DNA of 64,000 nt from Bacteroidota bacterium (GTDB taxonomy: Bacteria; Bacteroidota; Bacteroidia; UBA8524): the NCBI GenBank assembly GCA_008933805.1, contig WBUH01000005.1:128822-192821 (forward strand). The letters are read 5' to 3'. Shown here piece after piece: positions 1 to 44,948 of this stretch. The notes beneath the pieces are model-generated. The model was not told the DNA's origin, did no database searches, and worked only from the letters and a program-made list of their open reading frames with translations. Both the position numbers and the translations under genes were made by a program. Every line of letters starts with the position of its first letter. The stretch's first letter is position 1.

Positions 1-369
<369 letters not shown>

Positions 370-2128: not shown

Positions 2129-2197
2129 TCCCTTTGGTTTTGAAATAAACCGCGAAAAAACAACATTAAACCGACATTTTATAAACAAGTTGCCGAC

Positions 2198-3022: not shown

Positions 3023-3098
3023 GCCGCAAGATAAAAGAATTGCTATCATCTTTTATCCGTCTGCAAACCTGCGCTTTTGTATTTTCGTTAAGTTAATA

Positions 3099-3815: not shown

Positions 3816-3884
3816 TTAATCGTTAATCGAAAATTAATACCTCGCGAATTAGTTTCTCATATATTGCTGGTCAATATATTATCC

Positions 3885-4817: not shown

Positions 4818-4865
4818 CAATAATTATTGCACAATTTTAAACCGCAATCTTACCTTTGATAGTGT

Positions 4866-6023: not shown

Positions 6024-6083
6024 TTACCCTATTAAACTAAAAGCAAGGGTGAAAATCCTATTGCGTGTAATACCGTTGAACGT

Positions 6084-7373
6084 ATGAGAAATTGCATTTT
6101 ATTCATTTTCGTTGTCGCTATCTCTTTTATCAACCCGTTGAAATCACAAACATTGGGCACTGATATGAGCGGAAACTCGCCACTTGTGCATCAAGGCGGT
6201 AGTGCTTATGCCGACTTGGTAAATTCCAATTTCGGGGCATCGTTTTTTGCGTTTGACGATAACCTGTATTACCGACAATCCACCCTTTTTGGCGTAACAA
6301 TAAACGGTTCTGACAGGGCCGGCATGGCTGCCTTTTTAAACAAGGGGATTACAGCTCCTCAAGCATCTGCGGCCTTTACCGTAGGCATGAGCAAAACAAA
6401 CAACTTTATTAACCGGTATAAACCCCGTGCTGAGTATTGGGCATTGCTGGATGAAGAAGATTTGAGGCTCACCAGCCGGATGAACGCTTTGGTAAAAGAC
6501 AGTAACCAACTGAACAAAATGCTGGAAAGCATAGACAAAAAGTTTCCTGCCGAAACCGACACACTAAAACAGTTGTTCTTTTCTATTGAGACTCCGGGTT
6601 TTGAACAATTAAAACTGGTATGGATAGCTTATGCCAAAACCGTAACAAAAACTGATTTTTACAATGAGGTTATTTCCCTGCTTTTGGGAGCCAACAGTGA
6701 GTTTACGTACCTTTTTACTGAGTATAAGGATTTAAAACAAAAACACGACCAGATTATTCTGCAAAAACAAACTATTGATAAACCAGTAAGGCCATTTGTA
6801 CAGAACATATTGTACCTTACAACTGGGTTAAAACACAATGGTTTTTACCAAATTGACTCTCAAAACAATGCTATTAATGTTATCTTTAATAATATCACCG
6901 CGGGCTTTGTTGCCATAGGGGGCAGCCATTGCTTTGGCAACCGTGTTTTTTTAGGTTATCAAATAGGCCAAACCATGCTTGATAATTTTGAAGCCCTTGC
7001 TCCAATGGCCTACGATACAACAAAAACAGCCACAAAATCCCAAGCAGCTGCCACCCGTAGCTATCAAGTATATACAGGCACCTTTAATCGTTTTGTTTCG
7101 CCGTTTTTTTCATTCCACTTAGCCCTACGGCAAAAAGTAGGAAAAATAGGCCACGCCATTATCACCCCAATACAGTTTACTTATTCTGCTAAATCAACCA
7201 TCGGGGCATCGGTACAGTTAATTACAAACAGCGGGGTAAGTTTTGGTGCCTCCATTGAAAACAGAATTATTAGCGATGCCAGACTGAAACAGCCAGGCCA
7301 AGAAACATTCAGTCAGGTCTATTTCGGCTTTAGATTAGGCCTTATTCTTGCCGATTTTGATTTTATGAATTAG
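6084..7373 (+). CDS. Hypothetical secreted protein
   Basis: Long ORF with an N-terminal signal peptide. No recognisable domain. Confidence 0.45.
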   Translation: MRNCILFIFVVAISFINPLKSQTLGTDMSGNSPLVHQGGSAYADLVNSNFGASFFAFDDNLYYRQSTLFGVTINGSDRAGMAAFLNKGITAPQASAAFTVGMSKTNNFINRYKPRAEYWALLDEEDLRLTSRMNALVKDSNQLNKMLESIDKKFPAETDTLKQLFFSIETPGFEQLKLVWIAYAKTVTKTDFYNEVISLLLGANSEFTYLFTEYKDLKQKHDQIILQKQTIDKPVRPFVQNILYLTTGLKHNGFYQIDSQNNAINVIFNNITAGFVAIGGSHCFGNRVFLGYQIGQTMLDNFEALAPMAYDTTKTATKSQAAATRSYQVYTGTFNRFVSPFFSFHLALRQKVGKIGHAIITPIQFTYSAKSTIGASVQLITNSGVSFGASIENRIISDARLKQPGQETFSQVYFGFRLGLILADFDFMN

Positions 7374-8657
7374 CGGCTTGCAATTATAAATTGCTACTAC
7401 TACCGCAACCACCAGCAACGGGTAAACAGGTACTTTAAACCTTGCACTGCCTATAGGCCCTGTAAGAAACCAAATATACCCTGCCATAACCAATAAGTAT
7501 ATTTTTGGCCACAATGGGGTTTTGATAAATACAAACACCACACACATTAGCAATATCAACACGTTTGCTATCATTTGCAGCAGCAGTACAATTATTAAGG
7601 CAATAGGCTGGGTTTTAATAAACCGTTTCAGTTCACCTATATCTCCTTTGCTGATGTAGTGCAACAGCCCTAAACCATCTGTTTGCGGGATATTAAAAAA
7701 ACTAACGTAATCGTACCTGCCGGGGTCGGCCATAAAATTAAGCATCCCTCTTGCATGAAACTTGCCATAAGCAGGCACATCACTTAGTAATATTTGTTTG
7801 CAGGTATCTTTAATGTATTCGCATTGTTGCGCATAACTGCCCTTTTTTGCTACGGCTGAATCAATTACCACAATTACACTATCGCCGTACTCACTACCAT
7901 ACTTGGCAAACAAAAAATATTTAGTGTTATAATCTTTTAAATTAACATGGGTGATGGATGAATAATGCCTGTACCCTGTTTCTTGATAGTTTACCCCGCT
8001 CCACCAATAGGCTACCAATGGTAGCAACACTACTGTTAACGGCAAAAAATAATGCCTGTTTTTAATCGCAAAAATTAAAAGTACGACCAAGCTAATTACC
8101 CAAAAATACAGCATTACGGGTTTGGTAAGCAATGCCAATATTAGCAATGCTGTATTACCTATTATCCAATATTGTTTGTTGGTTTTTAAATAGCGTAAAA
8201 AGCAATAAAAAGCACCTGTTAAAAATGCCTGCAACAAGGTTTCGCTCATCACCATGTTGGCGTATAACAGTTGATTAGGAAATAGCACCCATAAAATTCC
8301 TGCCCACAAAGCAGGCTTTTCTATTCCAAAATCATCCCGTAATAATTTATATACCAGCCATGAACAAAAAATACTGATGATATTTTGCAACAACAGCACG
8401 GCATACAACGACCCGAAAATACTAGTTACTCCCCAAATAAATAGCCCGTACAAAGGCGGACGTTTACTGTAATAATCAATTTTTATAGGCTGGGTTGGGT
8501 CGTTGGCGTAAAAACTACCCGTAGCTTCAAAGTTTTTTGCCTGCCATATATAATCACCGCTATCAGGTAGCTGTATGTTACCCTTGTACAAGGCCAATAC
8601 AAAAAATACCGCATGCAGTAAGGTTATAAACAGCAGGTATTTTCGGGCATTACTCAA
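7335..8657 (-). CDS. Polytopic membrane protein, putative GT-C glycosyltransferase (ArnT/PMT, GT39/GT83-like)
   Basis: At least ten predicted transmembrane helices with a periplasmic loop. The architecture is typical of 4-amino-arabinose or mannosyl transferases. Function is tentative. Confidence 0.4.
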   Translation of the reverse strand: MSNARKYLLFITLLHAVFFVLALYKGNIQLPDSGDYIWQAKNFEATGSFYANDPTQPIKIDYYSKRPPLYGLFIWGVTSIFGSLYAVLLLQNIISIFCSWLVYKLLRDDFGIEKPALWAGILWVLFPNQLLYANMVMSETLLQAFLTGAFYCFLRYLKTNKQYWIIGNTALLILALLTKPVMLYFWVISLVVLLIFAIKNRHYFLPLTVVLLPLVAYWWSGVNYQETGYRHYSSITHVNLKDYNTKYFLFAKYGSEYGDSVIVVIDSAVAKKGSYAQQCEYIKDTCKQILLSDVPAYGKFHARGMLNFMADPGRYDYVSFFNIPQTDGLGLLHYISKGDIGELKRFIKTQPIALIIVLLLQMIANVLILLMCVVFVFIKTPLWPKIYLLVMAGYIWFLTGPIGSARFKVPVYPLLVVAVVVAIYNCKPLIHKIKIGKNKA

Positions 8658-11310: not shown

Positions 11311-13020
11311 TTACTGCTTATAGAATTTAAGATTCGCCTGCCCCTTCCCATCAGCACTTATCACTTTTGCTATGTAATATCCTTGGGGTAAGTGTGCAAT
11401 TGCAATTTCCAGCGTTGCCCCGTGTTCTGCAATGTATTGACCCTTGTAATACATCACCCCGTTTGCATTGCTTATCACAATTTCCGCAGTTTGCACACCA
11501 CCTACAGTTAGGTTTAGCACCTCTTGAGCAGGGTTGGGGAACAAGGCCATTTCAACTACTGGTGCGTTTTGGGCAGTTTGCTCAGTACCACAGTTACAAG
11601 TTCCTTCGGGAATAGCAGGGGTATTATCTGCCACAAGATCATGACCTTTATTTCCGCCTGTAGGAGCACGATGATTGGGTCGTTTTATTTCAATTTCAGT
11701 GCAATAGCTATCCTTGCACCTGCCATCACGATTACTGATATACAAACAGATGCGGTGCTTGCCGGGAGCTAATTTAGCAATGTAGTTTTCTAAGTTGCTA
11801 ACCCTTTGTCCGTCAATTACCCATGAATAGCTAAGATTGGTGCCTTTACTCATGTTGTAAAGCAACACTTTATACTCGTTCACCTCATACCTAAAGGCAG
11901 CCTGCAAGCGGCATGGTTCGGGCAACTTCACCTCTACTACTTTGCAAACGTGTTTCACACAGTTAGTGCCTTTAATTTTTACAGTAACGCAAACATTATA
12001 ACGACCCGACTCTCTGAATTGGAACATGAATCCTTCTCGTTCTGATACTTTACGTCCGTTTATGGTCCACTCGTACACCAAATCTTTACCTTCGGCTTCA
12101 GCAATAAATAAGGCTTTACCGCTATTATTAATCCTGTATTTAAATTCAACTTTCAGTTTAGCACAAGGGTCGGGACGTTTAATCTCTACCACCTTGCAAA
12201 TACGTTTTACGCAGTCTGTACCTTTAATTTTTACAACAAGGCAAACAGTATAGCGGCCGGGCTCCTTAAACTCAAACCTAAAGCCCTCTTTTTCAGAAAC
12301 CTTACGGCCATCCACAGTCCATTCATATACCAAGTTTTGTCCTTTTGTAGTACTTACAAATCCAACATTCTTCCCGTCAATCTCAAACCTGTAAGAGGCT
12401 TCCAATTCGTGGCAAGGGTCGCGCTTCACTTCAATGGTTTTGCAAATTGTTTCGCGGCATTTACCATCCCTGCTCACCACTGTAAGGCATACTTTGTAGA
12501 TTCCGGGTTGTTTAAAATCAAACTCCGGGTTAGGGCGGTCGCTTGTATGTCCGTTACCAAACTCCCACTTATATACCCAATCGTTCAGGTTGCTTTTAAC
12601 TTCACTTTTCAAATAGGCTACAGTTCCTTTTAATTCCACCCCAAAGCCAATTTCAAGGCGGCAAGGTTCTTTTATTTCCACCCGTTTACACACCGTATCG
12701 GCACAACGACGCACAGTGTTTTCAAACTTGTATTCACGTTTCACAATCAGGCACACCACATACACACCCTGTTTTTTAAAAGTATGTTCGGTACTACTGT
12801 TATGAGCCGTTGTATTATCGCCAAAGCTCCACAAATATTCAGTCCCGGTAGTTTGTGAACCTGTAGATTTTGCAGTGATTTTATAACCGTCTGTTTTCAG
12901 TTCAAAATTTGCATTGCATTCCCTGTTTTGTGCTTGTACGGCATTCCCTGCCAATAAGCAAATGGCCATCACCATCAATGATGCCAACACTTTAGTCAAA
13001 ATAGTAATCGTGTTTTTCAT
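11311..13020 (-). CDS. Secreted protein with five tandem PKD/Ig-like repeats of about 83 aa and a T9SS C-terminal sorting domain
   Basis: Signal peptide. Five repeats share W-x-FGDG-like motifs (YLWSFGDNT, YKWEFGNGH, YEWTVDG) and four conserved Cys each. The C-terminal tail LFPNPAQEVLNL...YYIAKV is a T9SS type-A CTD. Confidence 0.75.
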   Translation of the reverse strand: MKNTITILTKVLASLMVMAICLLAGNAVQAQNRECNANFELKTDGYKITAKSTGSQTTGTEYLWSFGDNTTAHNSSTEHTFKKQGVYVVCLIVKREYKFENTVRRCADTVCKRVEIKEPCRLEIGFGVELKGTVAYLKSEVKSNLNDWVYKWEFGNGHTSDRPNPEFDFKQPGIYKVCLTVVSRDGKCRETICKTIEVKRDPCHELEASYRFEIDGKNVGFVSTTKGQNLVYEWTVDGRKVSEKEGFRFEFKEPGRYTVCLVVKIKGTDCVKRICKVVEIKRPDPCAKLKVEFKYRINNSGKALFIAEAEGKDLVYEWTINGRKVSEREGFMFQFRESGRYNVCVTVKIKGTNCVKHVCKVVEVKLPEPCRLQAAFRYEVNEYKVLLYNMSKGTNLSYSWVIDGQRVSNLENYIAKLAPGKHRICLYISNRDGRCKDSYCTEIEIKRPNHRAPTGGNKGHDLVADNTPAIPEGTCNCGTEQTAQNAPVVEMALFPNPAQEVLNLTVGGVQTAEIVISNANGVMYYKGQYIAEHGATLEIAIAHLPQGYYIAKVISADGKGQANLKFYKQ

Positions 13021-13177
13021 AATTGTAAGGGTTTGATTTTATTAATTAGTCGGGATGGTTTATAAACGGTTGTAAAATTTTTTAAACTATTTTTTATCAC
13101 CAACGGATATACACAAAAAAGCCACTGTTAGCAATTACTTGCACACAGTGGCTAATATCAAAAATGCTCTGTTGGCG

Positions 13178-15661
13178 TTACTGTTTCACAAACTTTGTGT
13201 GTGTGGTGGTGGTACCTGTTGAAACTGTCAAAAAGTAAACCCCTTGCGCCAGTCCTGTAATATCAATATCTGTTTTTCCCCCGCTAAAGGGTTGCGTTGC
13301 AAGGCAAATACGTCCCTGCATATCACTAATTGTAATCTTACTTTCACCCTCATCCTCAGTAACCACCGTTAATTGTGTAGTTGCGGGATTGGGATACACC
13401 GCAATGCCTTGTTCACTAATTAGCATAGCCGCACTTTGCAGCCTATCCATAGTGCAATACACTTTATTGGTAGTATGTTGGGTAGCAAAGTCAAACCACA
13501 CTTCGGCCTTGTTCTTCACAAGTGTTCCGGCAGGTGTTTTATCACTCATACGTATCTTAAACCGTATGTGTCCCCTGTTATCAACAAAATCACTGCTGTG
13601 TAATAAGTTGGGCGGTAAATTAATATTAGAAAAAGTCCATATTAATACCCCTTTACCCAATTGCGGGGGCAGATTTACCACCTGTGTGGTGTATGGATGG
13701 CTGGCACCTAATTCTTGTATGTATTCAATACTCAGGTTCAAATCTATTGTATCCACCACCACCACCGTTTGTATGGTATCGTTGGTAGTGTTTTCAAACC
13801 GTATCAGATACTCAACATCGTGCTGGCCGCCATTAATATCAAATATTGTTACACTGTCGCCCGTTTTCGGCTCAGGAAAAATATACTTCCAGTTAATTAT
13901 AGTGTCATTATCAACCGTTTGTTGCAGTGTGTCGTAATTATCAGTACCAAAAACATCGTTCACACTGGCTGCATCTGCTAAAAACTCAATTTGTCCCGTA
14001 GAAGCACCTTCAACCTTGCCTTTAAACGCAATCGTTTTTTCTTCGCCGGGGTCAAGACTACTAAACTCCCATTGCGCCACCCCACCCGTAATAGATTGTG
14101 GCGGAGGTATGGCCGAGAAGTTTTTAAACCCTGTATCGATTTTCAATTTCAACTTGCCTTGAGAAATAGCTTTACCTCCATTATTTTTATAACTCAACGT
14201 GTAAAACTCTGTTATCCCCCTGCGGGCTTTGTAACCTGCATTAGGCAATATTTTAATCCCCACATCCTCAATACTTCCATCAAGGCGAAGGGCAAAATCG
14301 GCTGTATCAAAAATCACATTGTTGGTAGCTGGCGTAAACTGGTATAACGTAGGATTACAGCTACTTAGCGACCAATATTTTTTGGGTAAAATGGTAATGG
14401 GGTAAGTTCCGCTGCGGGGCACTACAAAAAAGTATATCCCTTCCCTATCCGTATAGGTAACCACCAACCCGTTAAATAAGCGCAATACTTGGCCAGCCAA
14501 AGGTTTCTCGCCTACATCACGACGGCAGTTATTATTTGCATCGTGGTACACTCTGCCGGCTATAATGGCTAAATCGTTATCAAACTCAGCAACGCGGTTC
14601 AATTGTATCCTGCCGAAACTTAAAAAGTTACCCGTAGCAAAAAAACGGTTTTTAAATCCCTTTAAAAATCTTACACCTGTTAGGTTTATCTCATCAAGCG
14701 TTAGCCATGAGGTATCCGACCATTTAATAATACTGTTGTTTTTGGGTGAGATATTAAACGACCCGCAAGCCCATATTTCATTATCAAAAAACTCAAGGTC
14801 ACTGAATACCGCAAGGTGTAAGTTGGGAAAACCCTTTGTACGGCTTTGCCAACCGCCATTTATGTATGAATAGATTATACGGTCTGAGTTATTTCCCAAG
14901 CCAACGGCCATTAATTCGGTTTTTGCGTTTTGCAAATGAGCAATTGAATGAAACGGACTTGTAGAATCGGCAATGGTGGATGAGCCTTTCAGTTTAAATA
15001 TGGGTACGCTTTTATTGCTTATGGCATGGGTATAATTACCACACACAAACAACGAATCATTAAACACTTCCAAATTAAGTGCTTGACCTATATAGGCCCC
15101 GCCTTGCAGTCCGTCAACCCCTTCCCACTTAAACCCGTTAAATTTTGCTATTCCGTTGGCTCTGGTGGTATCAATACGCGAAAACCCGCCCGCAGCATAT
15201 AAAAACCCGTCAAACACTTTTAAAGCATTTATACGGATAGGGCTTTGGTCTTCAACACGACGTCTGGCTGCATTCAGCCATTTTTTACCGTCAAGTACTA
15301 ATAGTCCTGTTTTTGGTGATGCTAAAAACACAGTATCAAAAAAACCGCCTGCATATAACTTATCCTTATACCATTCTACAGAGGTAATGTATGATTCAGG
15401 GCCGGCTACAAACGTTGACAAGTCTTGCCAAAAGAACCCGTTCCAACGTGCCACAGCAAATATTTTGTTTTTGTTGGGTGCCGTAGTCGAGTCAACAAAG
15501 GCAAAATACATATTATCGTTTGTTGAAGTAACTGCAACAGGAATTTGCTGAAAACCCTGTCCCAGCGGCTTCCATATTTGTGCAGTAGTGTTCAGGGTAC
15601 CTAATATACCCAACAATAACAGTATGCCTGTAAGTCTCAAAAACTTCATCAACGGATTCAC
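13178..15661 (-). CDS. Large T9SS-secreted protein with an N-terminal beta-propeller-like region, an SdrD/CnaB-like domain and a DUF11-like repeat
   Basis: Signal peptide. CnaB-like segment GRVYHDANNNCRRDVGEKPLAGQV. C-terminal tail VYPNPATTQLTV...GVYFLTV is a T9SS CTD. Overlaps the upstream gene by 4 nt, so it belongs to the same operon. Confidence 0.7.
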   Translation of the reverse strand: MNPLMKFLRLTGILLLLGILGTLNTTAQIWKPLGQGFQQIPVAVTSTNDNMYFAFVDSTTAPNKNKIFAVARWNGFFWQDLSTFVAGPESYITSVEWYKDKLYAGGFFDTVFLASPKTGLLVLDGKKWLNAARRRVEDQSPIRINALKVFDGFLYAAGGFSRIDTTRANGIAKFNGFKWEGVDGLQGGAYIGQALNLEVFNDSLFVCGNYTHAISNKSVPIFKLKGSSTIADSTSPFHSIAHLQNAKTELMAVGLGNNSDRIIYSYINGGWQSRTKGFPNLHLAVFSDLEFFDNEIWACGSFNISPKNNSIIKWSDTSWLTLDEINLTGVRFLKGFKNRFFATGNFLSFGRIQLNRVAEFDNDLAIIAGRVYHDANNNCRRDVGEKPLAGQVLRLFNGLVVTYTDREGIYFFVVPRSGTYPITILPKKYWSLSSCNPTLYQFTPATNNVIFDTADFALRLDGSIEDVGIKILPNAGYKARRGITEFYTLSYKNNGGKAISQGKLKLKIDTGFKNFSAIPPPQSITGGVAQWEFSSLDPGEEKTIAFKGKVEGASTGQIEFLADAASVNDVFGTDNYDTLQQTVDNDTIINWKYIFPEPKTGDSVTIFDINGGQHDVEYLIRFENTTNDTIQTVVVVDTIDLNLSIEYIQELGASHPYTTQVVNLPPQLGKGVLIWTFSNINLPPNLLHSSDFVDNRGHIRFKIRMSDKTPAGTLVKNKAEVWFDFATQHTTNKVYCTMDRLQSAAMLISEQGIAVYPNPATTQLTVVTEDEGESKITISDMQGRICLATQPFSGGKTDIDITGLAQGVYFLTVSTGTTTTHTKFVKQ

Positions 15662-17764: not shown

Positions 17765-17961
17765 AGCGGAGCAGGGTTTAAACCTTGCTCCGCTTATAGC
17801 TCAACAACGGTGGGTTTCATACCCACCTCCACCGCCCCCCAACGGCCATTCCGTCACCCCGACGGGCATAAAGCCCGCCGCTATCAAAGGGTTCCGTCCC
17901 GAATGGTTTTAAACCATTCGGGACGTTACACCCCAAAAGCCCTGAATTTTATATTCAGGGC
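17765..17961. other. Cluster of five consecutive strong hairpins. The last one, followed by a T-run on the minus strand, is the terminator of the glycosyltransferase gene.
   Basis: H1 17765-17795 AGCGGAGCAGGGTTTAAACCTTGCTCCGCT. H2 17809-17827 GGTGGGTttcatACCCACC. H3 about 17860-17880. H4 17896-17924 with a 14-bp perfect stem GTCCCGAATGGTTT/AAACCATTCGGGAC. H5 17938-17961 GCCCTGAATtttatATTCAGGGC. Confidence 0.6.
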
Positions 17962-19067
17962 AACATTGGGTTTTGTACCCACCTTAAATAATTATTTAGC
18001 ACATCTTCCCTAACCCCGTTCACCCTATCCATCACATAATGCTCGCGTACGGTTTCGTGCAGGGCTTCGCCCAACTCTTGGCGCAACGTGGGCGTTTGTA
18101 TCAACTTCTTAATGTACTTGTACCAATCGGTTTTATTATTCTCAACAAACAGCAAGTTCTTATAATGCTCGCCCAGCAACGTGTACGGATACACCTTTGA
18201 TACCACACAAGGCTTCTTAAACCAGCCTGCCTCCAGCAATTTCAACGGGCTTTTACAGCGATTAAACGACGTATCGGCCAACGGCACAATACACACATCC
18301 AGTTTATTGTATAACGTGGCATAATGCCGTATATCAAGCCCATGCACCCGTTGGTAATTAGGCCTTGCCCGGCCTGCCGTAAAAATTTGCTCGTAATACC
18401 CCCACACATCAAAATTTTGGGGACTATACCCGCACAAATTCACCCCGAAATGAGGCTGCAACGGCGCATCTTCATACAGCTTCTCAAACCCACGCTGCAA
18501 CAACGGTATATCATCCGTATGGCACAAACCGCCCACCCAACCCACACGCACCACATCGCTGTACAAAGGTTGCGGCACAAATTGCGGCTGCTCAGGGTCG
18601 ATAGCATTAGGGGCAACCGCCACATTCTTATTCAGCTTGCGCACTTGGGCGGCCAAATGCGGTGTAGTCGTAATCACCGCAGTTGCATTTTTAAGCGCCA
18701 ACTCAATACGGTCGGCCATTCGGTGTTGCCGCCATTGGTCGTACAACAAATGCGAGGTTGGCAACCGCCAATAGTCGTCTACATCCACCACAAACGGAAT
18801 ACCCGCCTTTTTAAGTGCATTCAGCACCAACTCATCGCGGCCAAAATTGCTTAACACACGACTAAACACTACCACATCAAAATTTTCAAGACGGGTATTC
18901 TCAGGGTCAATTTCATTAATCTGATGCAATTCGATAGGGCTGCGCTGACTAAGATGGATAAAGGGTATCAGCAGGCGGTGGTATTCAACACCGCCCACAT
19001 TAAAAGGGTCGCTCTTACTCCTGTAATTTACCACCAGCAACACCTTAGTCTTGGTCGGCATACGCAC
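17955..19067 (-). CDS. Glycosyltransferase, GT-B fold, family 1/4-like
   Basis: Rossmann-like N- and C-halves and a C-terminal EX7E-like region. The function is clear only at family level. Confidence 0.6.
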   Translation of the reverse strand: MRMPTKTKVLLVVNYRSKSDPFNVGGVEYHRLLIPFIHLSQRSPIELHQINEIDPENTRLENFDVVVFSRVLSNFGRDELVLNALKKAGIPFVVDVDDYWRLPTSHLLYDQWRQHRMADRIELALKNATAVITTTPHLAAQVRKLNKNVAVAPNAIDPEQPQFVPQPLYSDVVRVGWVGGLCHTDDIPLLQRGFEKLYEDAPLQPHFGVNLCGYSPQNFDVWGYYEQIFTAGRARPNYQRVHGLDIRHYATLYNKLDVCIVPLADTSFNRCKSPLKLLEAGWFKKPCVVSKVYPYTLLGEHYKNLLFVENNKTDWYKYIKKLIQTPTLRQELGEALHETVREHYVMDRVNGVREDVLNNYLRWVQNPMLP

Positions 19068-19560
19068 GCACCTCCTTCACGTATTTCCTAAACATGTATA
19101 TCACCGATTTTAAAGGGATACCCGTCCTACGGCTCGCCTCTCTAAACGATTTACATTCCGAAACCTCTACACACAAACGCGCAGGGTAAAAATGGGGCGG
19201 CTCTTTACGACTATCATCTGCAATCTTCTTCAAAGCCCTCAACTCCCTACGGTTAATACCCTCGTGGTCAATAATCTCCTCCGCCACATCATACGTCTCA
19301 TCATCCCACGGCGAAAAAGGCTGTGTATATTTCTTGTTAAACAAACTGTACTTATCGTTCTTTTGCCAAATAATCATGCGGGCCACATACAATTTCAAAT
19401 AACCCTTCGCATGTATTTCAAGCACCTTTTCAGGTTTATCGTATAACTGGCATATTACTTCGTGCAATAAATCTTCATTATCCTGTTTTCCAACCGTTCC
19501 GCTAAGCAATTTCAATTGCGGGTCATTATATATCTCTTCAATTATTTTATTTAATTCCAT
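19045..19560 (-). CDS. Small divergent ECF-sigma-like protein of 171 aa
   Basis: Region-2-like segment DLLHEVICQLYDKPEKVLEIHAKGYLKLYVARMIIWQ and a C-terminal region-4-like helix-turn-helix (FREASRRTGIPLKSVIYMFRKYVKEVRA). Overlaps the glycosyltransferase start by 23 nt. Confidence 0.45.
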   Translation of the reverse strand: MELNKIIEEIYNDPQLKLLSGTVGKQDNEDLLHEVICQLYDKPEKVLEIHAKGYLKLYVARMIIWQKNDKYSLFNKKYTQPFSPWDDETYDVAEEIIDHEGINRRELRALKKIADDSRKEPPHFYPARLCVEVSECKSFREASRRTGIPLKSVIYMFRKYVKEVRAYADQD

Positions 19561-19792: not shown

Positions 19793-20104
19793 TCAACTCT
19801 TGTCTGCATTTGGCGCAGGCATCGATAAAATATCCTTAGGCAATGGTAAACTATCGGTAGTTAATCCCGCCACTTGATTATATAGTAGCGTGAGCGCCAT
19901 CCGCCACTCGGTATCCGTTCCTGCAAGGCCGTACCGTTCGTACGTTTCAATGTAGCTGGGTTGGTGCAGCAAACTCACCGTAAACGTCCCTTTCGTCCAC
20001 TTGCCCTCAATCTCAGCCAGTTGATTACCCTCAATGCGGGCTATACAAAAATTTTTTCCGTGGCGCACCGGCCCGTTCGTTAATTTTTTAATTAATACGT
20101 TCAT
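19793..20104 (-). CDS. Hypothetical protein of 104 aa
   Basis: ORF only. Start chosen at MNVLIKK. Confidence 0.35.
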   Translation of the reverse strand: MNVLIKKLTNGPVRHGKNFCIARIEGNQLAEIEGKWTKGTFTVSLLHQPSYIETYERYGLAGTDTEWRMALTLLYNQVAGLTTDSLPLPKDILSMPAPNADKS

Positions 20105-20225
20105 TTTTAAGCTATAAATAATTGTAAATAGTAAGAGGTGTGCCTTGAAGGCTTGCAATTAGAAATCCAAAAGGAAGGGAGAAGAAATCAATAGTTTTGT
20201 TTAATAGCGGTTTAAAAAAGCATCC

Positions 20226-20308: not shown

Positions 20309-20542
20309 TTAAATAGCTGCTTCATGCTGATAGGGTTTGGGGCTGGTGTGTATTGTTGGCTGAAGCTGCTCTTTGTACTCTTCCCAAGCCTTATCAACCA
20401 AACGGCCCAGTTTTTCTTTAATCGCCACCAGGGCATCGTGCGTGGGGTGCAGTTCCCACATCATCTCGTACAATTCGTCGTTAATCACCTTAAGTTGCAT
20501 CGTTACTTCCTTGTTTATTAATAATTCTGTTTCAATCGACAT
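20309..20542 (-). CDS. Hypothetical small protein of 77 aa
   Basis: ORF only. Confidence 0.3.
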   Translation of the reverse strand: MSIETELLINKEVTMQLKVINDELYEMMWELHPTHDALVAIKEKLGRLVDKAWEEYKEQLQPTIHTSPKPYQHEAAI

Positions 20543-21999: not shown

Positions 22000-22235
22000 C
22001 CGCTATCCACCAACAACTATCAACCACCAACATCCCCGACATCCGACATCTGACATCAGACATCCATCCCCACCAACAACCACCAACTATCAACCACCAC
22101 CACACCCCTGACATCCAACATCTGCCATCTGACATCCATCCCCACCAACAACCATCAACCATCAACAACCATCAACCATCAACTACCAACCAACAACACC
22201 CCCGACATCAAAAATTTCCTCCCCCACATTGCACA
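22000..22235. repeat. C/A-rich, G-poor degenerate tandem repeat of about 2.5 copies of a 65-75 bp unit built from CCACCAACAAC, CATCAACCA and GACATC(C/T)GACATC sub-motifs
   Basis: Read directly from the sequence. The strong strand asymmetry creates a spurious W/G-rich ORF on the minus strand. It sits immediately upstream of the head-like module. Confidence 0.7.
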
Positions 22236-22263
22236 CTTTGCACCCCCTCCAATTACAGGGCAA

Positions 22264-22860
22264 ATGCAAAAACAACTCCCTGTTTACAAATTAAAAATTA
22301 CCGATGAAGACCCTGTATCAGGGGTTGATTACGTAGCATTGGTAGATGTGCCCGCCACCGAATTTAATTGGGTGGCATTTAACCGCCAAAAACCCATGCA
22401 GTTTAAGGTGCAGCACGCCGAGCAACGCATTATCTGCGGTGCGCTGATGGTAGCCAACCTGCCCATTTACCGCAAAGAGGGCGACCGCGAGTACTACGTG
22501 GTATTTGATGAGCCTACCATTAAAAGTGTTTGTTATAAATACTTCCGCAACCGTTACACCGCCAATGTAAATGTAATGCACAACCCGCAGCAAAAAGTGG
22601 GCGGCGTGTACATGGTGCAAAGCTATTTGATTGACAAACAAAACGGCGTAAATGCCCCTGCTTACTACCCCGAATTGCCTGACGGCAGCTGGTTTGGATG
22701 TTTTAAGGTGGATAACCCGCAAGTGTGGGACAACTACATAAAAACAGGCAAACTGCAAGGGTTTAGCGTGGAAGGGATGTTTGGCCAAATGCACGTAACC
22801 GATGCATCGGAAATTATTATCCAACAATTAATTGAGATTATCAAAAATGAAAATGACTAA
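22264..22860 (+). CDS. Hypothetical protein, first gene of the phage head-like module (possibly prohead protease / XkdF-like)
   Basis: The ORF is confident. The function is tentative and comes only from its position ahead of the scaffold-like and capsid-like genes. Confidence 0.3.
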   Translation: MQKQLPVYKLKITDEDPVSGVDYVALVDVPATEFNWVAFNRQKPMQFKVQHAEQRIICGALMVANLPIYRKEGDREYYVVFDEPTIKSVCYKYFRNRYTANVNVMHNPQQKVGGVYMVQSYLIDKQNGVNAPAYYPELPDGSWFGCFKVDNPQVWDNYIKTGKLQGFSVEGMFGQMHVTDASEIIIQQLIEIIKNEND

Positions 22861-23440
22861 AGAAAAAATCCTGAAGGCCATTGGTACCGATGCCTGGGAT
22901 AAAATTAAAAAACTGGCCTTTGGCGAACAGCCCGCAGGCGAAGTAACCGAAACAATGCTGACCGACGGCACTGAAATTATGTACGAAGGCGCGCTGGCAG
23001 TAGGCACATTGGTGATGGTAATTACCCCCGAAGGTGAAATGCCCATTGCCGACGGTAAGTACGAATTGGAAGACGGTACCCGCTTCACCACCAAAAAAGG
23101 AGCGGTAGCAACCTTAGCCGCAGGCGGCGGAAAAGGCGTGAAAACAGGCTCGAAACCACAAACGGGCGCAATAAACCAAGCATCAGACCTGAAAGAGAAA
23201 ATAGAAATGATGTACCGACAGCACGAAGAAAACGCGGTGGAGTTGGCCGCTATAAAAAAGCAATTCAGTACTATGCAGGCCGATAACAAAGCCTTGCGCC
23301 AAAACCTGAGCAAAATTAGCCGCGTACTGGAAATACTGGTAGAAAACACCCCCGACGAGCCTATCCGCAACCGCCAGTTTGCCCATAACACCAATAACCC
23401 CACCAAAGCCGAGCGCATCGCCGCATTACTGAAAAGCTAA
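22847..23440 (+). CDS. Coiled-coil protein, putative capsid scaffold-like protein
   Basis: Starts at MKMTKEK and overlaps the previous gene by 14 nt. The C-terminal half is a long heptad-rich helix (EKIEMMYRQHEENAVELAAIKKQFSTMQADNKALRQNLSKISRVLE). Size and position are typical of a scaffold. Confidence 0.35.
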   Translation: MKMTKEKILKAIGTDAWDKIKKLAFGEQPAGEVTETMLTDGTEIMYEGALAVGTLVMVITPEGEMPIADGKYELEDGTRFTTKKGAVATLAAGGGKGVKTGSKPQTGAINQASDLKEKIEMMYRQHEENAVELAAIKKQFSTMQADNKALRQNLSKISRVLEILVENTPDEPIRNRQFAHNTNNPTKAERIAALLKS

Positions 23441-23567
23441 TTCATTGCTTTTGGGAATTGGCCTTTAACCCTTAGCAATGACACTATGCTTTCATCTGCT
23501 AAAAGCCAAAGGCTAACGGCTAATAGCGATTAAAAATACTATCAACTCAAAACGATACAACACAACA

Positions 23568-24539
23568 ATGAAACACAACTCAATTCCCCGATTGCTTAAG
23601 CATTCGTTTGCATACAGCATCAGCTCGCTGGATAACTATACCGAGCAAAACGTAGTACCCTTGGTAACCAAATCACTGTTTGGCAGCCGCACCGCCGAAT
23701 TGTTCCCCGTACAAACAGGTATCAAATCAGCCGAGGTCATCAACATCATGGACGACCAAGTGTATTTTCAAAGCGGCACAGGATGCGGCTTCACCGCCAG
23801 CGGCGATACCACCTTCACCCAACGCACCATCACTGTAGGTAAAATCAAAGTGAATAAAAAATGGTGTCCCGATGAATTGGAAAGCAAATGGACACAATTT
23901 TTGCTAAACGCAGGCAGCTACTACGAAACCCTTGTGCCCGAAGAAGCCCTTGCCGATTTTATGACCGCTATTATTGCGCAGGAAATGGAAAAAGCTTACT
24001 GGCGCGGTGATACCACCAGCGGCAACCCAAACCTGAACAAATTTGATGGTTTTGTAAAAATTATCGACGCTGCCGGAACTGCCGTAGCAGGTAACACAAG
24101 CGCGCAAACTTCTATCACAGTGGCTAACGCCGTGGCAATACACAACAATATCCTTACTGCATTGCCCGCAAGTCTTTTAGACAAAGACGATGTGGTAATC
24201 TTAGAAGGATGGGACACTTTCCGCAAATTGATTTTAGGTCTTCAAGACGAAAACAACTTCTTTTACGATGCTGCCGGACCTGATAATCACATTGCAGGCG
24301 AATTGAGGTTGCCCGGAACTAACATTCGTGTGGTGGCTGTTCACGGTCTAAACGATACCAACCGCATTTTTGCAGGCCGCAGCAGCAATTTCTTCATCGG
24401 CACTGATTTGCTGAACGATTTTGAAAACTTCAACATCTGGTACAGCAAAGACAACGACGAGGTGCGCATGAAGGCCCGTTGGAAAGCCGGCGTACAAGTA
24501 GCATTCCCCAACGAAATTGTACAATACACCAACGCATAA
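23568..24539 (+). CDS. Putative phage major capsid-like protein of 323 aa
   Basis: Size, Gly/Thr/Ala-rich composition and position after the scaffold-like gene. No motif-level proof is available without a profile or structure search. Confidence 0.35.
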   Translation: MKHNSIPRLLKHSFAYSISSLDNYTEQNVVPLVTKSLFGSRTAELFPVQTGIKSAEVINIMDDQVYFQSGTGCGFTASGDTTFTQRTITVGKIKVNKKWCPDELESKWTQFLLNAGSYYETLVPEEALADFMTAIIAQEMEKAYWRGDTTSGNPNLNKFDGFVKIIDAAGTAVAGNTSAQTSITVANAVAIHNNILTALPASLLDKDDVVILEGWDTFRKLILGLQDENNFFYDAAGPDNHIAGELRLPGTNIRVVAVHGLNDTNRIFAGRSSNFFIGTDLLNDFENFNIWYSKDNDEVRMKARWKAGVQVAFPNEIVQYTNA

Positions 24540-24656
24540 TAGCTGTTTGCTCTTGGCTCTTGGCAATTAGCTAAAAGCCAAATGCTAATTGCCAAAAGCA
24601 GCCAACCCAAAATAAAAATCAAAACTCTTAAAACATAAAACTTAACAACTAAAAAT

Positions 24657-25169
24657 ATGTCATGTGCATTAACCACAGGCTTCACGCTGGATTGCCGACA
24701 AAGCAACGGCGGTATAGAAGCCGTATATTTTACAGAAATAGCCAACAAGGCAACATTAACTGCTGCAAGCGGTGTCATCACTGCATTCACATTGGCAGCC
24801 ACTAAAAAATTCTTCAAATACGAGTTGAGAAAAAAAACAGGGCAGTTGGAACAAAACATACAGGTAAACAACGAAAACGGCACTGTATTTTACGAACAAA
24901 CTCTTACCGTTAAATTAGATAAGTTGGAGGTAAATAAACGCAACGAAATTTTGTTGCTGGCCAAAAACAACCTGATGGTAATTGTGAAGGATAACAACGG
25001 CAAATACTGGCTGGTGGGCGAAACCCGCGGTGCTTTGTTAAGTGCCGGAAAAGGAACCACAGGAACCGCCTTTGGCGATATGAGCGGCTTTGAACTAACC
25101 TTTACAGGTGAAGAGCCCGAATTGGCCAAAGAAGTTGACTCAACCCTTATTGCTACATTAACAGCATAA
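24657..25169 (+). CDS. Putative phage tail-tube / major-tail-like protein of 170 aa
   Basis: Small beta-rich protein directly after the capsid-like gene (VIVKDNNGKYWLVGETRGALLSAGKGTTGTAFGDMSGFELTF). Tentative. Confidence 0.3.
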   Translation: MSCALTTGFTLDCRQSNGGIEAVYFTEIANKATLTAASGVITAFTLAATKKFFKYELRKKTGQLEQNIQVNNENGTVFYEQTLTVKLDKLEVNKRNEILLLAKNNLMVIVKDNNGKYWLVGETRGALLSAGKGTTGTAFGDMSGFELTFTGEEPELAKEVDSTLIATLTA

Positions 25170-25214
25170 CCTTACAACGTACCGGTTTCATTCATCCGTT
25201 CTCCGGTATTTGTG

Positions 25215-25250
25215 CCCCGTTTGCAGCAATGCAAGCGGGGTTTTGTTTTA
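25215..25250 (+). terminator. Rho-independent terminator closing the head-like module
   Basis: CCCCGTTTGCA-gcaa-TGCAAGCGGGG stem of 11 bp with one mismatch, followed by TTTTGTTTTA. Confidence 0.65.
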
Positions 25251-25330
25251 TAGTGAAATGATAATCGCACGCAAGGGAGCAATAAAGCATAAATTTGTTA
25301 GTGCCTTGGTGTCTTAGCGGCAGAAAAACC

Positions 25331-25900
25331 TTACAGTTTCTCCAAATACTTCTTTATAGCAAGTGGGAAATGCTTGTACTCCAACTCGTGTACCTTTTTA
25401 GCCAACGTTTCAGGCGTATCATCAGCATCAATCCTTGTTACAGCCTGCAACACAATTTCACCCTTATCGTATTCAGCGTCCACCGTGTGTATAGTTATAC
25501 CGCTTTCCTCTTCCCCGGCTTCAATAACAGCAATATGTACATTCATTCCGTACATTCCCTTACCGCCGTACTTAGGCAACAACGCAGGGTGTATATTCAA
25601 AATCCTGTTAGGAAACGCCTCGATAAGATTAGCAGGCACCAGCCATAAAAACCCGGCCAACACTACCAAATCAGCATCAAAAGCCTCAATCAAATCAACA
25701 ATTTTGCGGGTATTGTAAAACTCGTCCCTATCAAAAACCACACAGGGTACATCAAGGTCTTCGCAACGTTTTATTACGCCAGCTTTAGGGTTATTGCAAA
25801 AAACAGCCTCAACACTTGCAGTGCCGTCTTTCCTAAAAAATTCAATAATATTTTGGGCATTACTGCCTGAGCCCGAGGCAAAAATCACTATGTTTTTCAC
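25331..25900 (-). CDS. purN: Phosphoribosylglycinamide formyltransferase
   Basis: IFASGSGSN at the N-terminus, the NIHPALLP motif and the formyltransferase catalytic region. Confidence 0.9.
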   Translation of the reverse strand: MKNIVIFASGSGSNAQNIIEFFRKDGTASVEAVFCNNPKAGVIKRCEDLDVPCVVFDRDEFYNTRKIVDLIEAFDADLVVLAGFLWLVPANLIEAFPNRILNIHPALLPKYGGKGMYGMNVHIAVIEAGEEESGITIHTVDAEYDKGEIVLQAVTRIDADDTPETLAKKVHELEYKHFPLAIKKYLEKL

Positions 25901-36072: not shown

Positions 36073-36579
36073 TTAAGCGGTTTGTTCTTCTGGTTTAAAA
36101 TTTTTGCTGCAAGCCGTGCAAGTGCCTGCATCGTCTAATTTTGGCGAACCAAACAAGTTTAGCGAGTGGCTGGTGATATCAAATTTCAGCAACTCACCCA
36201 TCATACTCTGTATTTGCTGTATACGGGGGTCGCAAAATTCAATCACATTATTACAACGGTTACAAATCAGGTGGTCGTGCTGGCGGTAACCGAAGCTACG
36301 TTCAAACTGAGCCATGTTTTTACCAAACTGGTGCTTGGTAACAAGGCCGCAATCCAGCAACAAATCAAGCGTGTTATACACCGTAGCCCTGCTAACATGG
36401 TAGTTGCGGTTCTTCATCTGTATGTATAACGACTCAACATCAAAATGCTCCTTTTTGCTGTATATCTCATCCAATATAGCATAACGTTCGGGCGTTTTGC
36501 GCTGCTTCTTTTGCTCAAGGTAATCTGTAAATATTTTACGTACTTCCTCTGGGGCAGTTTGTCGGCTCATTGTACTCAC
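36073..36579 (-). CDS. fur: Fur-family metalloregulator with a C-terminal Cys-containing extension
   Basis: Winged-helix DNA-binding N-domain and the HHDHLIC...C metal-binding site. An extra tail of about 25 aa carries C-x2-C. The gene lies 19 nt upstream of purA. Confidence 0.75.
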
Positions 36580-37665: not shown

Positions 37666-40095
37666 CTATACTACTACCGACTGGTCTTCTATCACTTTTA
37701 CTTTTTGTTGGGCACTACGGATATCAGCCTCAGTTACAAACACCTTCAAAGGTTCAGGGCTGTGCTGGCGGGCAATAATTTGGGTACTACCGATTTGTGG
37801 CGCACTGATTTGGGGTGCTGAAACCGAAGGTGCTGAAGGTGCTCCTCCCCCGCCACCAATACTTCCTCCACTTGACAATACCTTATGAGCTTGTGCCACT
37901 GCTGAGGCTATTTGGGCGGATATGGCCGCAAATTTTGCAATACCGGCAATACCCCCTGTAGCAACGTTATCAGGTGTCGGCGCATTAGTATTGGAAATGG
38001 CACTACTTATCGCCTTTGCGGAATCAATGCCGATTTTTACTAAGGTTATTGCCTTCTCAATATCGTTTTGAGTCTTGGCATTCTTAATCAGGTTTTTATT
38101 AACGGTATCAATTACATCCAATCCATCTTTAGCAGCCTTTTCTGCAAACTCCCACTTCGCCTTGGTAATTGCTTTCTCGCGTTCAATTTGGGCAAGAAGT
38201 CGGGCATTCTTTTCTTCTTCAATAGCAGTGTCTAGTTCATTCTCTGCCTCCTGTTGTTGAACTTTTAATGATGCCTCATCTTCGATTTTCTGAGCCCGTA
38301 ATGCTTTTTCAATGGCATCGTACTCTTCAACGCTCAGTTGGTTATTGGTTTTCTTTTCCAACTCGGCAGCAAGCAGCTCATCATAATGCGTTTGTAAATC
38401 TGCCTTTTGCTGTGCGTAGAAATCCTGAGTAAGGCTTTGCTTACGTCTAAGAGCTTCCTCCTCAGTAATCTCCTTATCTTTCAAACTCTTCTCCAGCAGC
38501 TTAAACTCGTTCTCAAGGCTTTTCCGTTTATTTTCCTCGTTACGTTTTACCCACTTCTCATTTGCCTCTAAAACCGCCTTCTGTCTTTCTTCTCGCTCCT
38601 TTTGCTCTTTTGCATCCCACTCTTTGTTAATGTCATTTACCCGCTTTTCATGCAGTTTTTTCAACTCTTCAAGAGCGTTAGTATTGTCCTTGTAGCGTTC
38701 CTTTTCCCCAGCATATTTCAACTCTTCCTCTGCCAACTCTTTCTTCCTGCCTTCCTCCATATTAGCTAATCGGAGTTGCTCATAATCCTGCTCTTGCTTT
38801 GCCTTGCTTTTGGCTGATTCTATGTCAATATTTTTTAAGCTGAGTTCAAATCCAGCCTTTTGGTTTTCAAACTCCAGTAGCTTTTCCTTAGACGCATCTA
38901 TAGCCTCTTGACCCTTTTTCTCTACTTCTTCTGGATTAAAAAACTGTGAAGCAGCAAAATCCGCTAGTTTCTCACGCAAGTTTAACTCTTTGTCAAACAA
39001 ACTCGCTATCTTATCAACAGCAGCCAACACAGGTGATAAGCCTATCAAAACAAACTCCAATACACTTTTTAAGATTCTTTTATTTCGTGTTTCTGCTTCA
39101 ATTTGAGCCGCTAATACCTTTTCTTGGTTTTCAATGTCTGCTTTACCTGTACTAATTACAACCCCTAATTGCTCTATCTTAGTTTTAAGTATAGCCCGCT
39201 CACTTTTCCCTTTTTGTCTTTCAATATTCTCTTGACCTTCAAGGCTAGTAAAGGTTTTCTGAGCATTATCATACAGCTTTGTGCCGGTTTTTAAATTCTC
39301 TTTTTGCTCTGAACTAACTCCGCTTATAGAATTTTTAATCTTGTCCCAATAAGAAGCTAAAGTGGCTACTGCTGTAATAATAATCCCAATAACATTTGCC
39401 GACATCACTTTATTAAGCACCTTAAAGCTACCCGTAGCGCCTACCAATGAACCTGAAAGTTTTTGATTAGCATCGCTTCCCTTTTGAGAAGAACTTACCG
39501 ACTCTTTATGTAAAGCATTTGATAGCTTCTGAATAGAGTTTTGTATGGCTTGAATTTTTGATAAATTACCAATAATTTGTGAAAGTCGACCTGTTTCCAA
39601 ACTAAACAATTCTGCGGCAGCTTTGGCACCTTCAAATCCAGTCTTAACATTTTCGCCAACATATATCATTTTGTCAACATTGGGTGTCAATGAACCAAGT
39701 TCATTTATTAACTTATTAGTTTGAGCAATCTTCCTATTGTACTCTCCAACTTTAATAGCTGCTTTGTTAAATTCTTCGGAACCAATCTCTTGATTTTTCA
39801 AAACAACATTTAAATCTTCAATAGAATAGTTCAGGTCAGCTAAACTGCCACTAAGCAAAATAATATCCTTTACTGATTTAGCAGACTTTTCAACATCTAC
39901 TAATGCTCTCTCGTAAAGCATAATTTTGTCATTGGCAGTGCTAATGCTTTTACCTAAACTCAAAAAAGCTTCTGAACCAATATCAGCTTTACTAACTTGT
40001 TCTTTCAATAAATCCAGCCAAATTTTCAAATCCCTTAGATTTGATTCTGCTAATTCAGTATTTATATCGAAATTAAACTTAAAATCCTTTTCCAT
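37666..40095 (-). CDS. Long coiled-coil protein of 809 aa, putative tape-measure-like protein
   Basis: Almost entirely heptad-rich helix, with one hydrophobic segment (VIGIIITAVATLASYW) and a Gly/Ala/Ser-rich C-terminus. It is the last gene of a three-gene operon. Tentative. Confidence 0.35.
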   Translation of the reverse strand: MEKDFKFNFDINTELAESNLRDLKIWLDLLKEQVSKADIGSEAFLSLGKSISTANDKIMLYERALVDVEKSAKSVKDIILLSGSLADLNYSIEDLNVVLKNQEIGSEEFNKAAIKVGEYNRKIAQTNKLINELGSLTPNVDKMIYVGENVKTGFEGAKAAAELFSLETGRLSQIIGNLSKIQAIQNSIQKLSNALHKESVSSSQKGSDANQKLSGSLVGATGSFKVLNKVMSANVIGIIITAVATLASYWDKIKNSISGVSSEQKENLKTGTKLYDNAQKTFTSLEGQENIERQKGKSERAILKTKIEQLGVVISTGKADIENQEKVLAAQIEAETRNKRILKSVLEFVLIGLSPVLAAVDKIASLFDKELNLREKLADFAASQFFNPEEVEKKGQEAIDASKEKLLEFENQKAGFELSLKNIDIESAKSKAKQEQDYEQLRLANMEEGRKKELAEEELKYAGEKERYKDNTNALEELKKLHEKRVNDINKEWDAKEQKEREERQKAVLEANEKWVKRNEENKRKSLENEFKLLEKSLKDKEITEEEALRRKQSLTQDFYAQQKADLQTHYDELLAAELEKKTNNQLSVEEYDAIEKALRAQKIEDEASLKVQQQEAENELDTAIEEEKNARLLAQIEREKAITKAKWEFAEKAAKDGLDVIDTVNKNLIKNAKTQNDIEKAITLVKIGIDSAKAISSAISNTNAPTPDNVATGGIAGIAKFAAISAQIASAVAQAHKVLSSGGSIGGGGGAPSAPSVSAPQISAPQIGSTQIIARQHSPEPLKVFVTEADIRSAQQKVKVIEDQSVVV

Positions 40096-44842: not shown

Positions 44843-44948
44843 ATTCCTCATAGATAACAGCCTAGCCTCTCTTTTCACTTATCTAATTAATAGAAAAGAT
44901 TCCATCCCCTTTGCAGAAACAATCCCCGCTGTTTCCAATTAACAGCCG

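Follow-up and report, generated by a model that had tools for sequence, protein, structure and literature searches.

A phage-derived head and tail-tube operon in a Bacteroidota chromosome belongs to a scattered, putatively gene transfer agent-like gene set

We analyzed a 64,000-nucleotide (nt) stretch of DNA, here called the window, from a Bacteroidota bacterium of the UBA8524 lineage (assembly GCA_008933805.1, contig WBUH01000005.1, positions 128,822 to 192,821 of the forward strand), in which four adjacent genes at positions 22264 to 25250 had been read, from the sequence alone, as a phage head-morphogenesis cassette. The window is a piece of a Bacteroidota chromosome, as seen from its type IX secretion system (T9SS) sorting domains and its purH, purN, purA, and iscS/iscU genes. 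The identity of the cassette stands, whereas its context had been missed: it is one fragment of a scattered set of phage-derived genes that is selectively maintained. On the basis of the analyses presented below, we propose that the cassette is probably the head and tail-tube operon of a domesticated, multilocus particle system that derives from a siphovirus and resembles a gene transfer agent (GTA).

The operon codes for a prohead protease of the XkdF type, a scaffold-like protein, a capsid protein with the HK97 fold, and the tail tube protein, and the labels that the sequence-only reading had attached to the four products are all supported by Pfam and PHROG profiles, gene position, and fold comparison. 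The first open reading frame (ORF1; 22264 to 22860, forward strand; 198 aa) is a prohead maturation protease of the XkdF/Peptidase_S78_2 family, matching Pfam PF14550 over profile positions 6 to 121 of 126 (E value of 2e-11; 44.4 bits against a cutoff of 24) and also PHROG head maturation protease families. ORF2 (22847 to 23440, forward strand; 197 aa from the ATG, with an alternative start possible at a TTG at 22832) is identified as scaffold-like mainly by position, as the corresponding gene lies between those for the protease and the capsid in more than 20 phage or prophage loci, and it does so in every phage relative that was examined. A long C-terminal coiled coil had been ascribed to ORF2; this is weakly supported by eight subthreshold Pfam matches, all to coiled-coil families, spanning about 60 to 70 residues within residues ~95 to 168.

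ORF3 (23568 to 24539, forward strand; 323 aa) is the product on which the cassette interpretation had been staked, with the absence of a capsid fold named as the finding that would overturn it. It has no match in Pfam, NCBIfam, or the PDB sequences. An AlphaFold model built from 33 homologues (predicted local distance difference test [pLDDT] score of 76; predicted template modeling [pTM] score of 0.74) yielded 382 matches at an E value of ≤1e-3 in a Foldseek comparison with the PDB, and the best 50 of these 382 are all HK97-fold capsid or encapsulin shell proteins, with TM-scores of 0.45 to 0.6 and a Foldseek probability of 1.00. The capsids of PhiTE, phiRSA1, the GTA of Rhodobacter capsulatus (RcGTA), and HK97 are the leading matches. 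By this model ORF3 is predicted to adopt the HK97 fold, and it additionally matches phrog_11320 (2e-25). The model of ORF4 (24657 to 25169, forward strand; 170 aa) has 11 strands and two helices, in agreement with its earlier description as a small beta-rich protein, and displays the beta-sandwich fold of tail tube and Hcp proteins, identifying it as the tail tube (major tail) protein. The fold matches of the capsid and tube include the RcGTA structures 6tb9 and 6tba. Sequence searches against the PDB with the capsid, tube, and portal proteins and with the 979-aa and 171-aa proteins described below were uninformative, and fold comparison was required; NCBIfam likewise offers no name for the protease, capsid, tube, or tape-measure-like protein.

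The architecture of the cassette agrees exactly with the earlier description, with four codirectional genes, a 14-nt overlap between the first two, and gaps of 127 and 117 nt thereafter. An intrinsic terminator (25214 to 25251, forward strand) closes the operon; its hairpin (25214 to 25241), described as having an 11-bp stem, in fact pairs over 12 positions including two G-U pairs, is capped by a GCAA loop, and is followed by UUUUGUUUUAU. The predicted folding energy of -32.7 kcal/mol (z = -6.0) was equaled in 0 of 200 shuffled sequences. Immediately downstream, as had been noted, purN lies on the opposite strand (25331 to 25900; Formyl_trans_N, 6e-47), and HxlR and DUF2306 genes flank the other side of the cassette. 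Both gaps within the operon share a plan in which a stable hairpin directly 3' of the upstream stop codon is followed by an unstructured A/C-rich leader. The hairpin behind the scaffold gene occupies positions 23444 to 23530 (-27.3 kcal/mol; z = -4.1), and that behind the capsid gene occupies positions 24553 to 24605 (-26.8 kcal/mol; z = -4.5), both on the forward strand. Hairpins of divergent sequence occur at the equivalent sites in two related contigs, L009 and L003, giving three species in all. These structures may serve as stabilizers or attenuators within the operon, and they may determine how much scaffold, capsid, and tube message there is relative to one another. A search of Rfam found no known RNA family within or around the cassette.

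Cassettes homologous to this one are present in Bacteroidota phages and prophages, as a check named in the sequence-only reading has now revealed, and the capsid family numbers about 2,500 members. Relatives of the capsid at 36 to 61% identity are encoded on phage contigs or in prophages, including a 58-kb metagenomic contig and prophages in Chitinophaga, Mucilaginibacter, Ferruginibacter, and others. In these elements, the genes run on a single strand in the order terL, b_216, b_183, B1, B2, tape measure, protease, scaffold, capsid, tube, C1, portal, and DUF6712, with endolysin or holin genes near the block. Capsid relatives at 82 to 100% identity, on the other hand, come from six species-level genomes, all of them metagenome-assembled genomes (MAGs) of uncultured Bacteroidia/Bacteroidota, two being closed chromosomes (OZ252261 and OZ244977). 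Throughout this clade of at least six species, housekeeping genes divide the block into at least five clusters, whose arrangement varies. One group has the portal cluster in inverted orientation relative to the head cassette, with LpxR and other genes preceding the tail cluster; an MmeI-type restriction-modification gene stands between clusters in a second; and in a third, LemA/DUF2207 genes plus about 6 kb lie between the tube gene and the portal cluster. The arrangement of the window is common to its two closest relatives. Across the clade, terS and terL, which code for the small and large terminase subunits, lie 24 to 30 kb from the head cassette, with host neighbors that vary by species. 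A scan of 2.9 million viral contigs retrieved relatives at 26 to 50% identity only, none of them from the >80% clade.

In the genome under study, the partners of the cassette are distributed over at least four further clusters in a region of about 70 kb. Tblastn with genes from related contigs brought phage-derived clusters in the window to light, with L003 and the phage L001 as the sources of comparison for cluster C. The genes between clusters are core host genes: purH, purN, purA, 2-oxoacid dehydrogenase E2, iscS/iscU, peroxiredoxin, and T9SS cargo. The cassette is therefore not part of a prophage, given the lack of a contiguous att-bounded block with an integrase and the housekeeping genes between clusters. 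No integrase, replication, or lysogeny genes were seen adjoining any cluster, in ~66 kb of this genome and in pieces of about 20 kb from its relatives. The sequence-only reading was right that no portal or terminase gene is adjacent to the cassette; both are nevertheless present, the portal gene at 60993 to 62276 and terS/terL 1.5 to 2.2 kb beyond the left edge of the window.

Cluster C, with the portal gene, lies on the forward strand near the right edge of the window and comprises a 131-aa gene (C1; 60635 to 61030), the portal gene itself (427 aa; 60993 to 62276), a DUF6712 gene (62318 to 62893; 6e-25), a 44-aa gene (62881 to 63012), and a homologue of a 406-aa protein that begins at 62963 and ends past the window edge at 64000. 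The portal protein matches phrog_33693 (1e-34) and TIGR01540 portal_PBSX (2e-14), with a score of 37.7 bits against Pfam Phage_portal that is just below the cutoff of 39.1. Its length varies among relatives (427 aa here, 417 aa as called in L030, 497 aa in L003, L006, and L007, and 416 to 709 aa in phage relatives), and the differences are confined to the C-terminal part (compare window positions 60993 to 62276 with L003 positions 4585 to 6078 and L001 positions 12081 to 14210).

Cluster D holds the packaging genes on the reverse strand, beyond the left edge of the window. A public 9.6-kb contig (L035) is 100% identical to window positions 1 to 7456 and reaches 2165 nt further left, showing a promoter-like element, a 102-aa gene, an 88-aa gene, terS (138 aa), and terL at window coordinates of about -900 to -2165 and beyond. 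In this contig, terS is of the GP3_package family, and terL is represented by residues 1 to 94 in one open frame that includes the Walker A motif. Four genomes of the clade have intact terS and terL. An intact TerL of 395 aa (Terminase_3 plus Terminase_3C) is encoded in the same cluster in L048, L031, L034, and L012; a strain that is 92 to 95% related to the window genome shows this protein there. An ATPase-type gene is always directly upstream of the promoter-like element of this cluster. It is of the AAA_14/DUF4143 type in the window genome (its end occupies positions 1 to 369, forward strand, of the window, and it continues at L035 positions 1404 to 2534) and in L031 (7783 to 8916), and of the SLFN_AlbA_2/HATPase_c_4 type at the same position in L034 (7516 to 8835). 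It could be a regulator or a defense gene.

Cluster B, on the reverse strand, presumably supplies tail and tail-tip genes. It encodes a 401-aa protein (43050 to 44255), a 979-aa protein (40114 to 43053), and an 809-aa tape-measure-like protein (37666 to 40095; tape measure phrog_24676, 5e-11), whose homologues sit just upstream of the protease gene in the colinear phages and prophages and which share 60 to 71% identity within the clade. Divergent from cluster B are b_216 (44949 to 45599) and b_183 (45675 to 46226), on the forward strand (whole feature, 44913 to 46226), which are homologous to the pair of genes downstream of terL in the prophages. Cluster E, on the reverse strand, consists of genes for proteins of 77 aa (20309 to 20542), 121 aa (19793 to 20158), and 171 aa (19045 to 19560) and a 370-aa glycosyltransferase (17955 to 19067; phrog_7162 phage glycosyltransferase, 3e-55). 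The 77-, 171-, and 370-aa genes are conserved at 66 to 74% identity in OZ244977, the most distant genome of the clade, where they stand beside the terminase cluster rather than the head cassette. This suggests that cluster E is probably part of the same phage-derived set.

The dispersed clusters are linked by a shared sequence element. Four genes that lead clusters conform to the consensus TGAAACA-N13-CCAATTA-N6-8-ATG (in its variant form, TG(A/C)AACA-N12-13-CCAATTA). The copy belonging to the cassette (22229 to 22263, forward strand) consists of TTGCACAC at 22229 to 22236, a 12-nt spacer, CCAATTA at 22249 to 22255, and 8 nt leading to the ATG of the protease gene. This form, TTGCACAC-N12-CCAATTA-N8-ATG, precedes the protease gene in all eight of the clade loci. 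Cluster C is headed on the same strand by TTGAAACA at 60600 to 60607 with CCAATTA at 60621 to 60627, and b_216, also on the forward strand, is headed by GAAACA-N13-CCAATTA-N7-ATG (CCAATTA at 44935 to 44941). The exact 12-mer CCAATTACAGGG occurs twice in the window against about 0.008 expected copies, once 3 nt before the protease ATG and once 2 nt before that of the gene leading cluster C. While CCAATTA has 13 sites in the window, the ATG of a long ORF follows within 7 to 8 nt at only three of them, namely, those of the protease gene, b_216, and C1; when the same rule is applied across the clade loci, it selects only the leaders of clusters A (the head cassette), C, and D and of b_216. The element is absent from 13 phage and prophage loci, save for one spurious site before a 60-codon ORF. 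These observations suggest that the scattered clusters form one regulon and that the element was acquired after domestication. Its position close to the ATG implies nearly leaderless mRNAs. The form TG(A/C)AACA-N12-13-CCAATTA resembles the promoter consensus of extracytoplasmic function (ECF)-type sigma factors such as sigma-W/X/M, a resemblance that is a lead rather than a test.

A candidate for the regulator is the 171-aa product of cluster E. Pfam, PHROG, and NCBIfam gave no match to it, and hhalign comparison with the two ECF sigma factors encoded in the window recovered only a short region-4-like helix-turn-helix (E = 0.056), which did not confirm the idea that it is a sigma factor. Immediately 5' of the element heading the cassette is a 215-nt G-poor, C/A-rich repeat tract (22000 to 22215, forward strand), the sole 100-nt stretch of the window with ≤4 G, which contains a 72-nt tandem duplication (22030 to 22101 and 22102 to 22173) and six copies of GACATC. 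The window has six GACATC copies, the near-identical contig L008 and the contig L007 have three each, and other relatives have none. The tract is hypervariable, with a copy number that differs even between near-identical strains. The GACATC repeats were considered as a conserved operator and ruled out, as they are variable and missing from several relatives.

We estimated the ratio of nonsynonymous to synonymous substitution rates (dN/dS) by the Nei-Gojobori method between the window and five to seven other members of the clade. The values are 0.013 to 0.05 for the protease, 0.025 to 0.06 for the capsid, 0.06 to 0.09 for the tube, 0.13 to 0.24 for the scaffold, and, where estimable, about 0.06 for TerL, with synonymous sites near saturation in the deeper pairs. 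For the host genes compared with L009, the closest other species, they are 0.012 for purN, 0.048 for DUF2306, and 0.068 for HxlR. In the same comparison, dS is 0.34 to 0.93 for the cassette and 0.76 to 0.97 for the flanking host genes, and this likeness argues for vertical codivergence of the two. The phage-derived proteins retain 80 to 94% identity between genome pairs in which the neighboring host protein LemA retains 70%. Roughly 20 genes are all intact in at least five other species. These comparisons indicate that the gene set is vertically inherited under strong purifying selection across the six species-level genomes.

The predicted products include TerS, TerL, portal, protease, scaffold, capsid, tube, and tape-measure-like proteins and further tail proteins, so that, as far as annotation can tell, all the functions for building a DNA-filled tailed particle are present and selected. 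The structural and packaging genes reside in a cellular genome without integrase, replication, or lysogeny modules adjoining them in the stretches examined. The set also extends over at least 68 kb, with host genes interspersed, compared with 35 to 58 kb for the genomes of related phages. At the level of definition, such a profile would be that of a GTA. We consider it very likely that these are selectively maintained, particle-forming domesticated phage genes. That the resulting particle system resembles a GTA is, in our judgment, the probable reading, held with less assurance. The fullest version of this proposal, namely, that this is the first GTA-like system of the Bacteroidota, derived from an independently domesticated siphovirus, spread over at least five chromosomal clusters, and unified as one regulon by the acquisition of a new promoter, which an alternative sigma factor or activator encoded by the system or by the host would recognize, is one that we put forward tentatively.

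Under the GTA-like reading, a dedicated regulator (an alternative sigma factor or an activator, such as the 171-aa protein) would switch the clusters on together. The capsid and scaffold proteins would assemble into procapsids on the portal, from which the protease would then remove the scaffold, and TerS and TerL would fill the heads with DNA. A noncontractile tail made of the tube protein, the tape measure, and the tip proteins would be attached to the head. The particles would be unable to propagate the system, because its genes exceed the packaged length of the related phages and are interleaved with host genes, and they would carry mostly host DNA.

Several points weigh against this reading. 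The whole case is built on sequence analysis, and the promoter role of the motif and the regulatory role of the 171-aa protein are things that we infer. Cluster B has no promoter-like element, and its tape-measure assignment comes from weak PHROG matches. No lysis genes were found in the roughly 66 kb of this genome that we examined, and no head-tail connector was positively identified among the cluster proteins. The head genes have a GC content at third codon positions (GC3) of 0.45 to 0.56 versus a host mean of 0.42; their codon usage thus differs from that of the host, and compositional amelioration, considered as a sign of long residence, is not demonstrated. In the closed chromosome OZ244977, moreover, the capsid gene (L013/L006; near position 10415 of L013) is frameshifted by one missing A in a GAAATGG run into ORFs of 155 and 184 aa. 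The glycosyltransferase of that genome is also called as two ORFs, of 156 and 187 aa (L034 positions 6248 to 7309). The disruptions may represent real decay in that lineage or error in a long-read assembly.

A serious rival is that the domesticated particle is selected for a role other than gene transfer, such as a PBSX-like killer or bacteriocin, a decoy in defense against related phages, or a DNA-release or biofilm factor, with DNA packaging being incidental. All the evidence for domestication applies equally here, and both the portal and TerL fall in PBSX-type families (TIGR01540 and "PBSX family" names); PBSX itself packages host DNA and yet acts as a killer particle (PMC12946183). Purifying selection has, however, kept both terS and terL, which suggests that DNA packaging matters, and PBSX-type elements are contiguous prophage-like blocks in contrast to the scattered set found here, so we regard this explanation as unlikely while still taking it as a contender. 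Inert remains of an old prophage, broken up by rearrangements and now decaying, would account for the scattering, the lack of integrase and replication genes, and the disrupted capsid and divided glycosyltransferase of one genome. Strong purifying selection and the intactness of the genes strongly disfavor this view: some 20 genes persist unbroken in at least five other species despite near-saturated synonymous sites, dN/dS values of 0.01 to 0.2 are comparable to that of purN, and a regulatory element absent from phages is conserved at the cluster leaders. We therefore deem decay improbable.

The clear free-phage relatives at 36 to 61% identity raise the question of whether an active temperate phage carries the cassette or whether, since capsid-forming satellites also carry protease, scaffold, and capsid modules (9gyi is among the fold matches), it belongs to a satellite akin to the capsid-forming phage-inducible chromosomal islands (cf-PICI). 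This is very improbable, as no integrase, att site, or replication module is found in the stretches examined, the clusters extend across about 70 kb in a species-specific arrangement with housekeeping genes between them, the flanking host genes are syntenic in related species, and the 2.9 million viral contigs hold no close relative. That the 323-aa protein forms an encapsulin-type nanocompartment, the HK97 fold being common to both and encapsulins being among the fold matches, has almost nothing to recommend it against a gene that travels with those for a prohead protease, scaffold, tail tube, portal, and terminase, is orthologous to tailed-phage capsid genes, and has no adjacent cargo gene.

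We accordingly place the system with domesticated-phage and GTA-like systems, among which it is distinguished by its phylum, the fragmentation of its core morphogenesis genes, and the shared promoter-like signature. The closest analogue is the multilocus "genome" of RcGTA (PMC5026251, PMC7947584), which is encoded in at least five loci (PMC7947584). Both systems are siphovirus derived, with an HK97-fold capsid, prohead protease, portal, TerS/TerL, tail tube, and tape measure; both occupy several chromosomal loci with vertical inheritance, purifying selection, and no integrase or replication genes seen; and both appear to be coregulated from outside the structural genes, in our case as read from the shared element. 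Unlike RcGTA, the parent phage here had an unusual gene order, with the tube directly after the capsid and then the portal. There is no detectable sequence relationship between the two (12 to 16% identity in structural alignments), so that the origin here, from a Bacteroidota phage lineage, is independent.

With PBSX and the PBSX-like defective prophages of Bacillus, the system shares the property of being host-encoded, phage-derived particle genes, as well as the PBSX-type families of its portal and large terminase and a protease family named after XkdF. PBSX differs in being a single uninterrupted prophage block of myovirus-like type, with a tail that contracts, whereas the present genes are dispersed and no gene for a sheath turned up in the clusters or in the phages and prophages related to them. 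The Bacteroidota siphophages and prophages have the same families in the same internal order (protease, scaffold, capsid, and tube) at 36 to 61% protein identity. Named examples are prophages of Chitinophaga polysaccharea and Mucilaginibacter pedocola and "uncultured Caudovirales phage UFOVP1624," with Nonlabens phages P12024S/L more distant. In contrast to our set, their genes are colinear on one strand with terL and holin/endolysin genes and lack the CCAATTA element. FpGTA of Faecalibacterium is a recently proposed GTA-like element with two operons about 125 kb apart (PMC12946183). It is likewise GTA-like, outside the Alphaproteobacteria, and divided over more than one locus, but it is podovirus-like, comes from the Firmicutes, is unrelated in sequence, and is backed by packaging experiments, whereas the present system, in this as in its comparison with RcGTA, is known from its genes alone. 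GTAs are described in the literature from Alphaproteobacteria, Desulfovibrio, Brachyspira, Methanococcus, PBSX-like elements, and Faecalibacterium; our search, of incomplete coverage, found none for Bacteroidota.

A few further features of the neighborhood deserve mention. A host-like LemA plus DUF2207 gene pair adjoins different phage-derived clusters in different genomes, lying before the portal cluster here (57597 to 60462, reverse strand), after the tube gene in L010/L011 (11832 to 14555), and before b_183/b_216 in L003 (13631 to 16709); it could be what is left of the site where the phage genes first inserted, or it could reflect a functional link. In L007, a 1226-aa MmeI-type restriction-modification fusion gene (3670 to 7350) separates the portal cluster from the head cassette. 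Between clusters B and C, the window encodes a 1168-aa protein with a C-terminal caspase (Peptidase_C14) domain (52605 to 56111, reverse strand), which probably has nothing to do with the scattered phage-derived set. A 168-aa ORF beside purA (36073 to 36579, reverse strand) matches phrog_13084, a family of unknown function (5.7e-25); in the relatives that we examined, it did not appear in the vicinity of the clusters. Contigs identical or nearly identical to the window have been deposited under the names Oscillatoria amoena NRMC-F 0135, "Agrobacterium sp. 719_389" (a MAG), and "uncultured Burkholderiales" (a MAG), which points to culture contamination or misbinning; the cyanobacterial culture assembled under the first of these names is nonaxenic and contains the bacterium, so it may be a physical source of the organism.

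Annotation pipelines currently label all of these genes "hypothetical protein," and prophage finders and GTA classifiers miss such systems because no single locus looks complete. The motif at the cluster leaders could define a regulon and reveal similar hidden systems. The present set is extreme in that even its core head, portal, and terminase genes have been physically separated from one another and are nevertheless strongly selected. Confirmed GTAs are few and mostly alphaproteobacterial, and independent origins test the repeated taming of tailed phages by cells; if the GTA-like reading is true, the Bacteroidota example would extend GTAs to a major environmental phylum.

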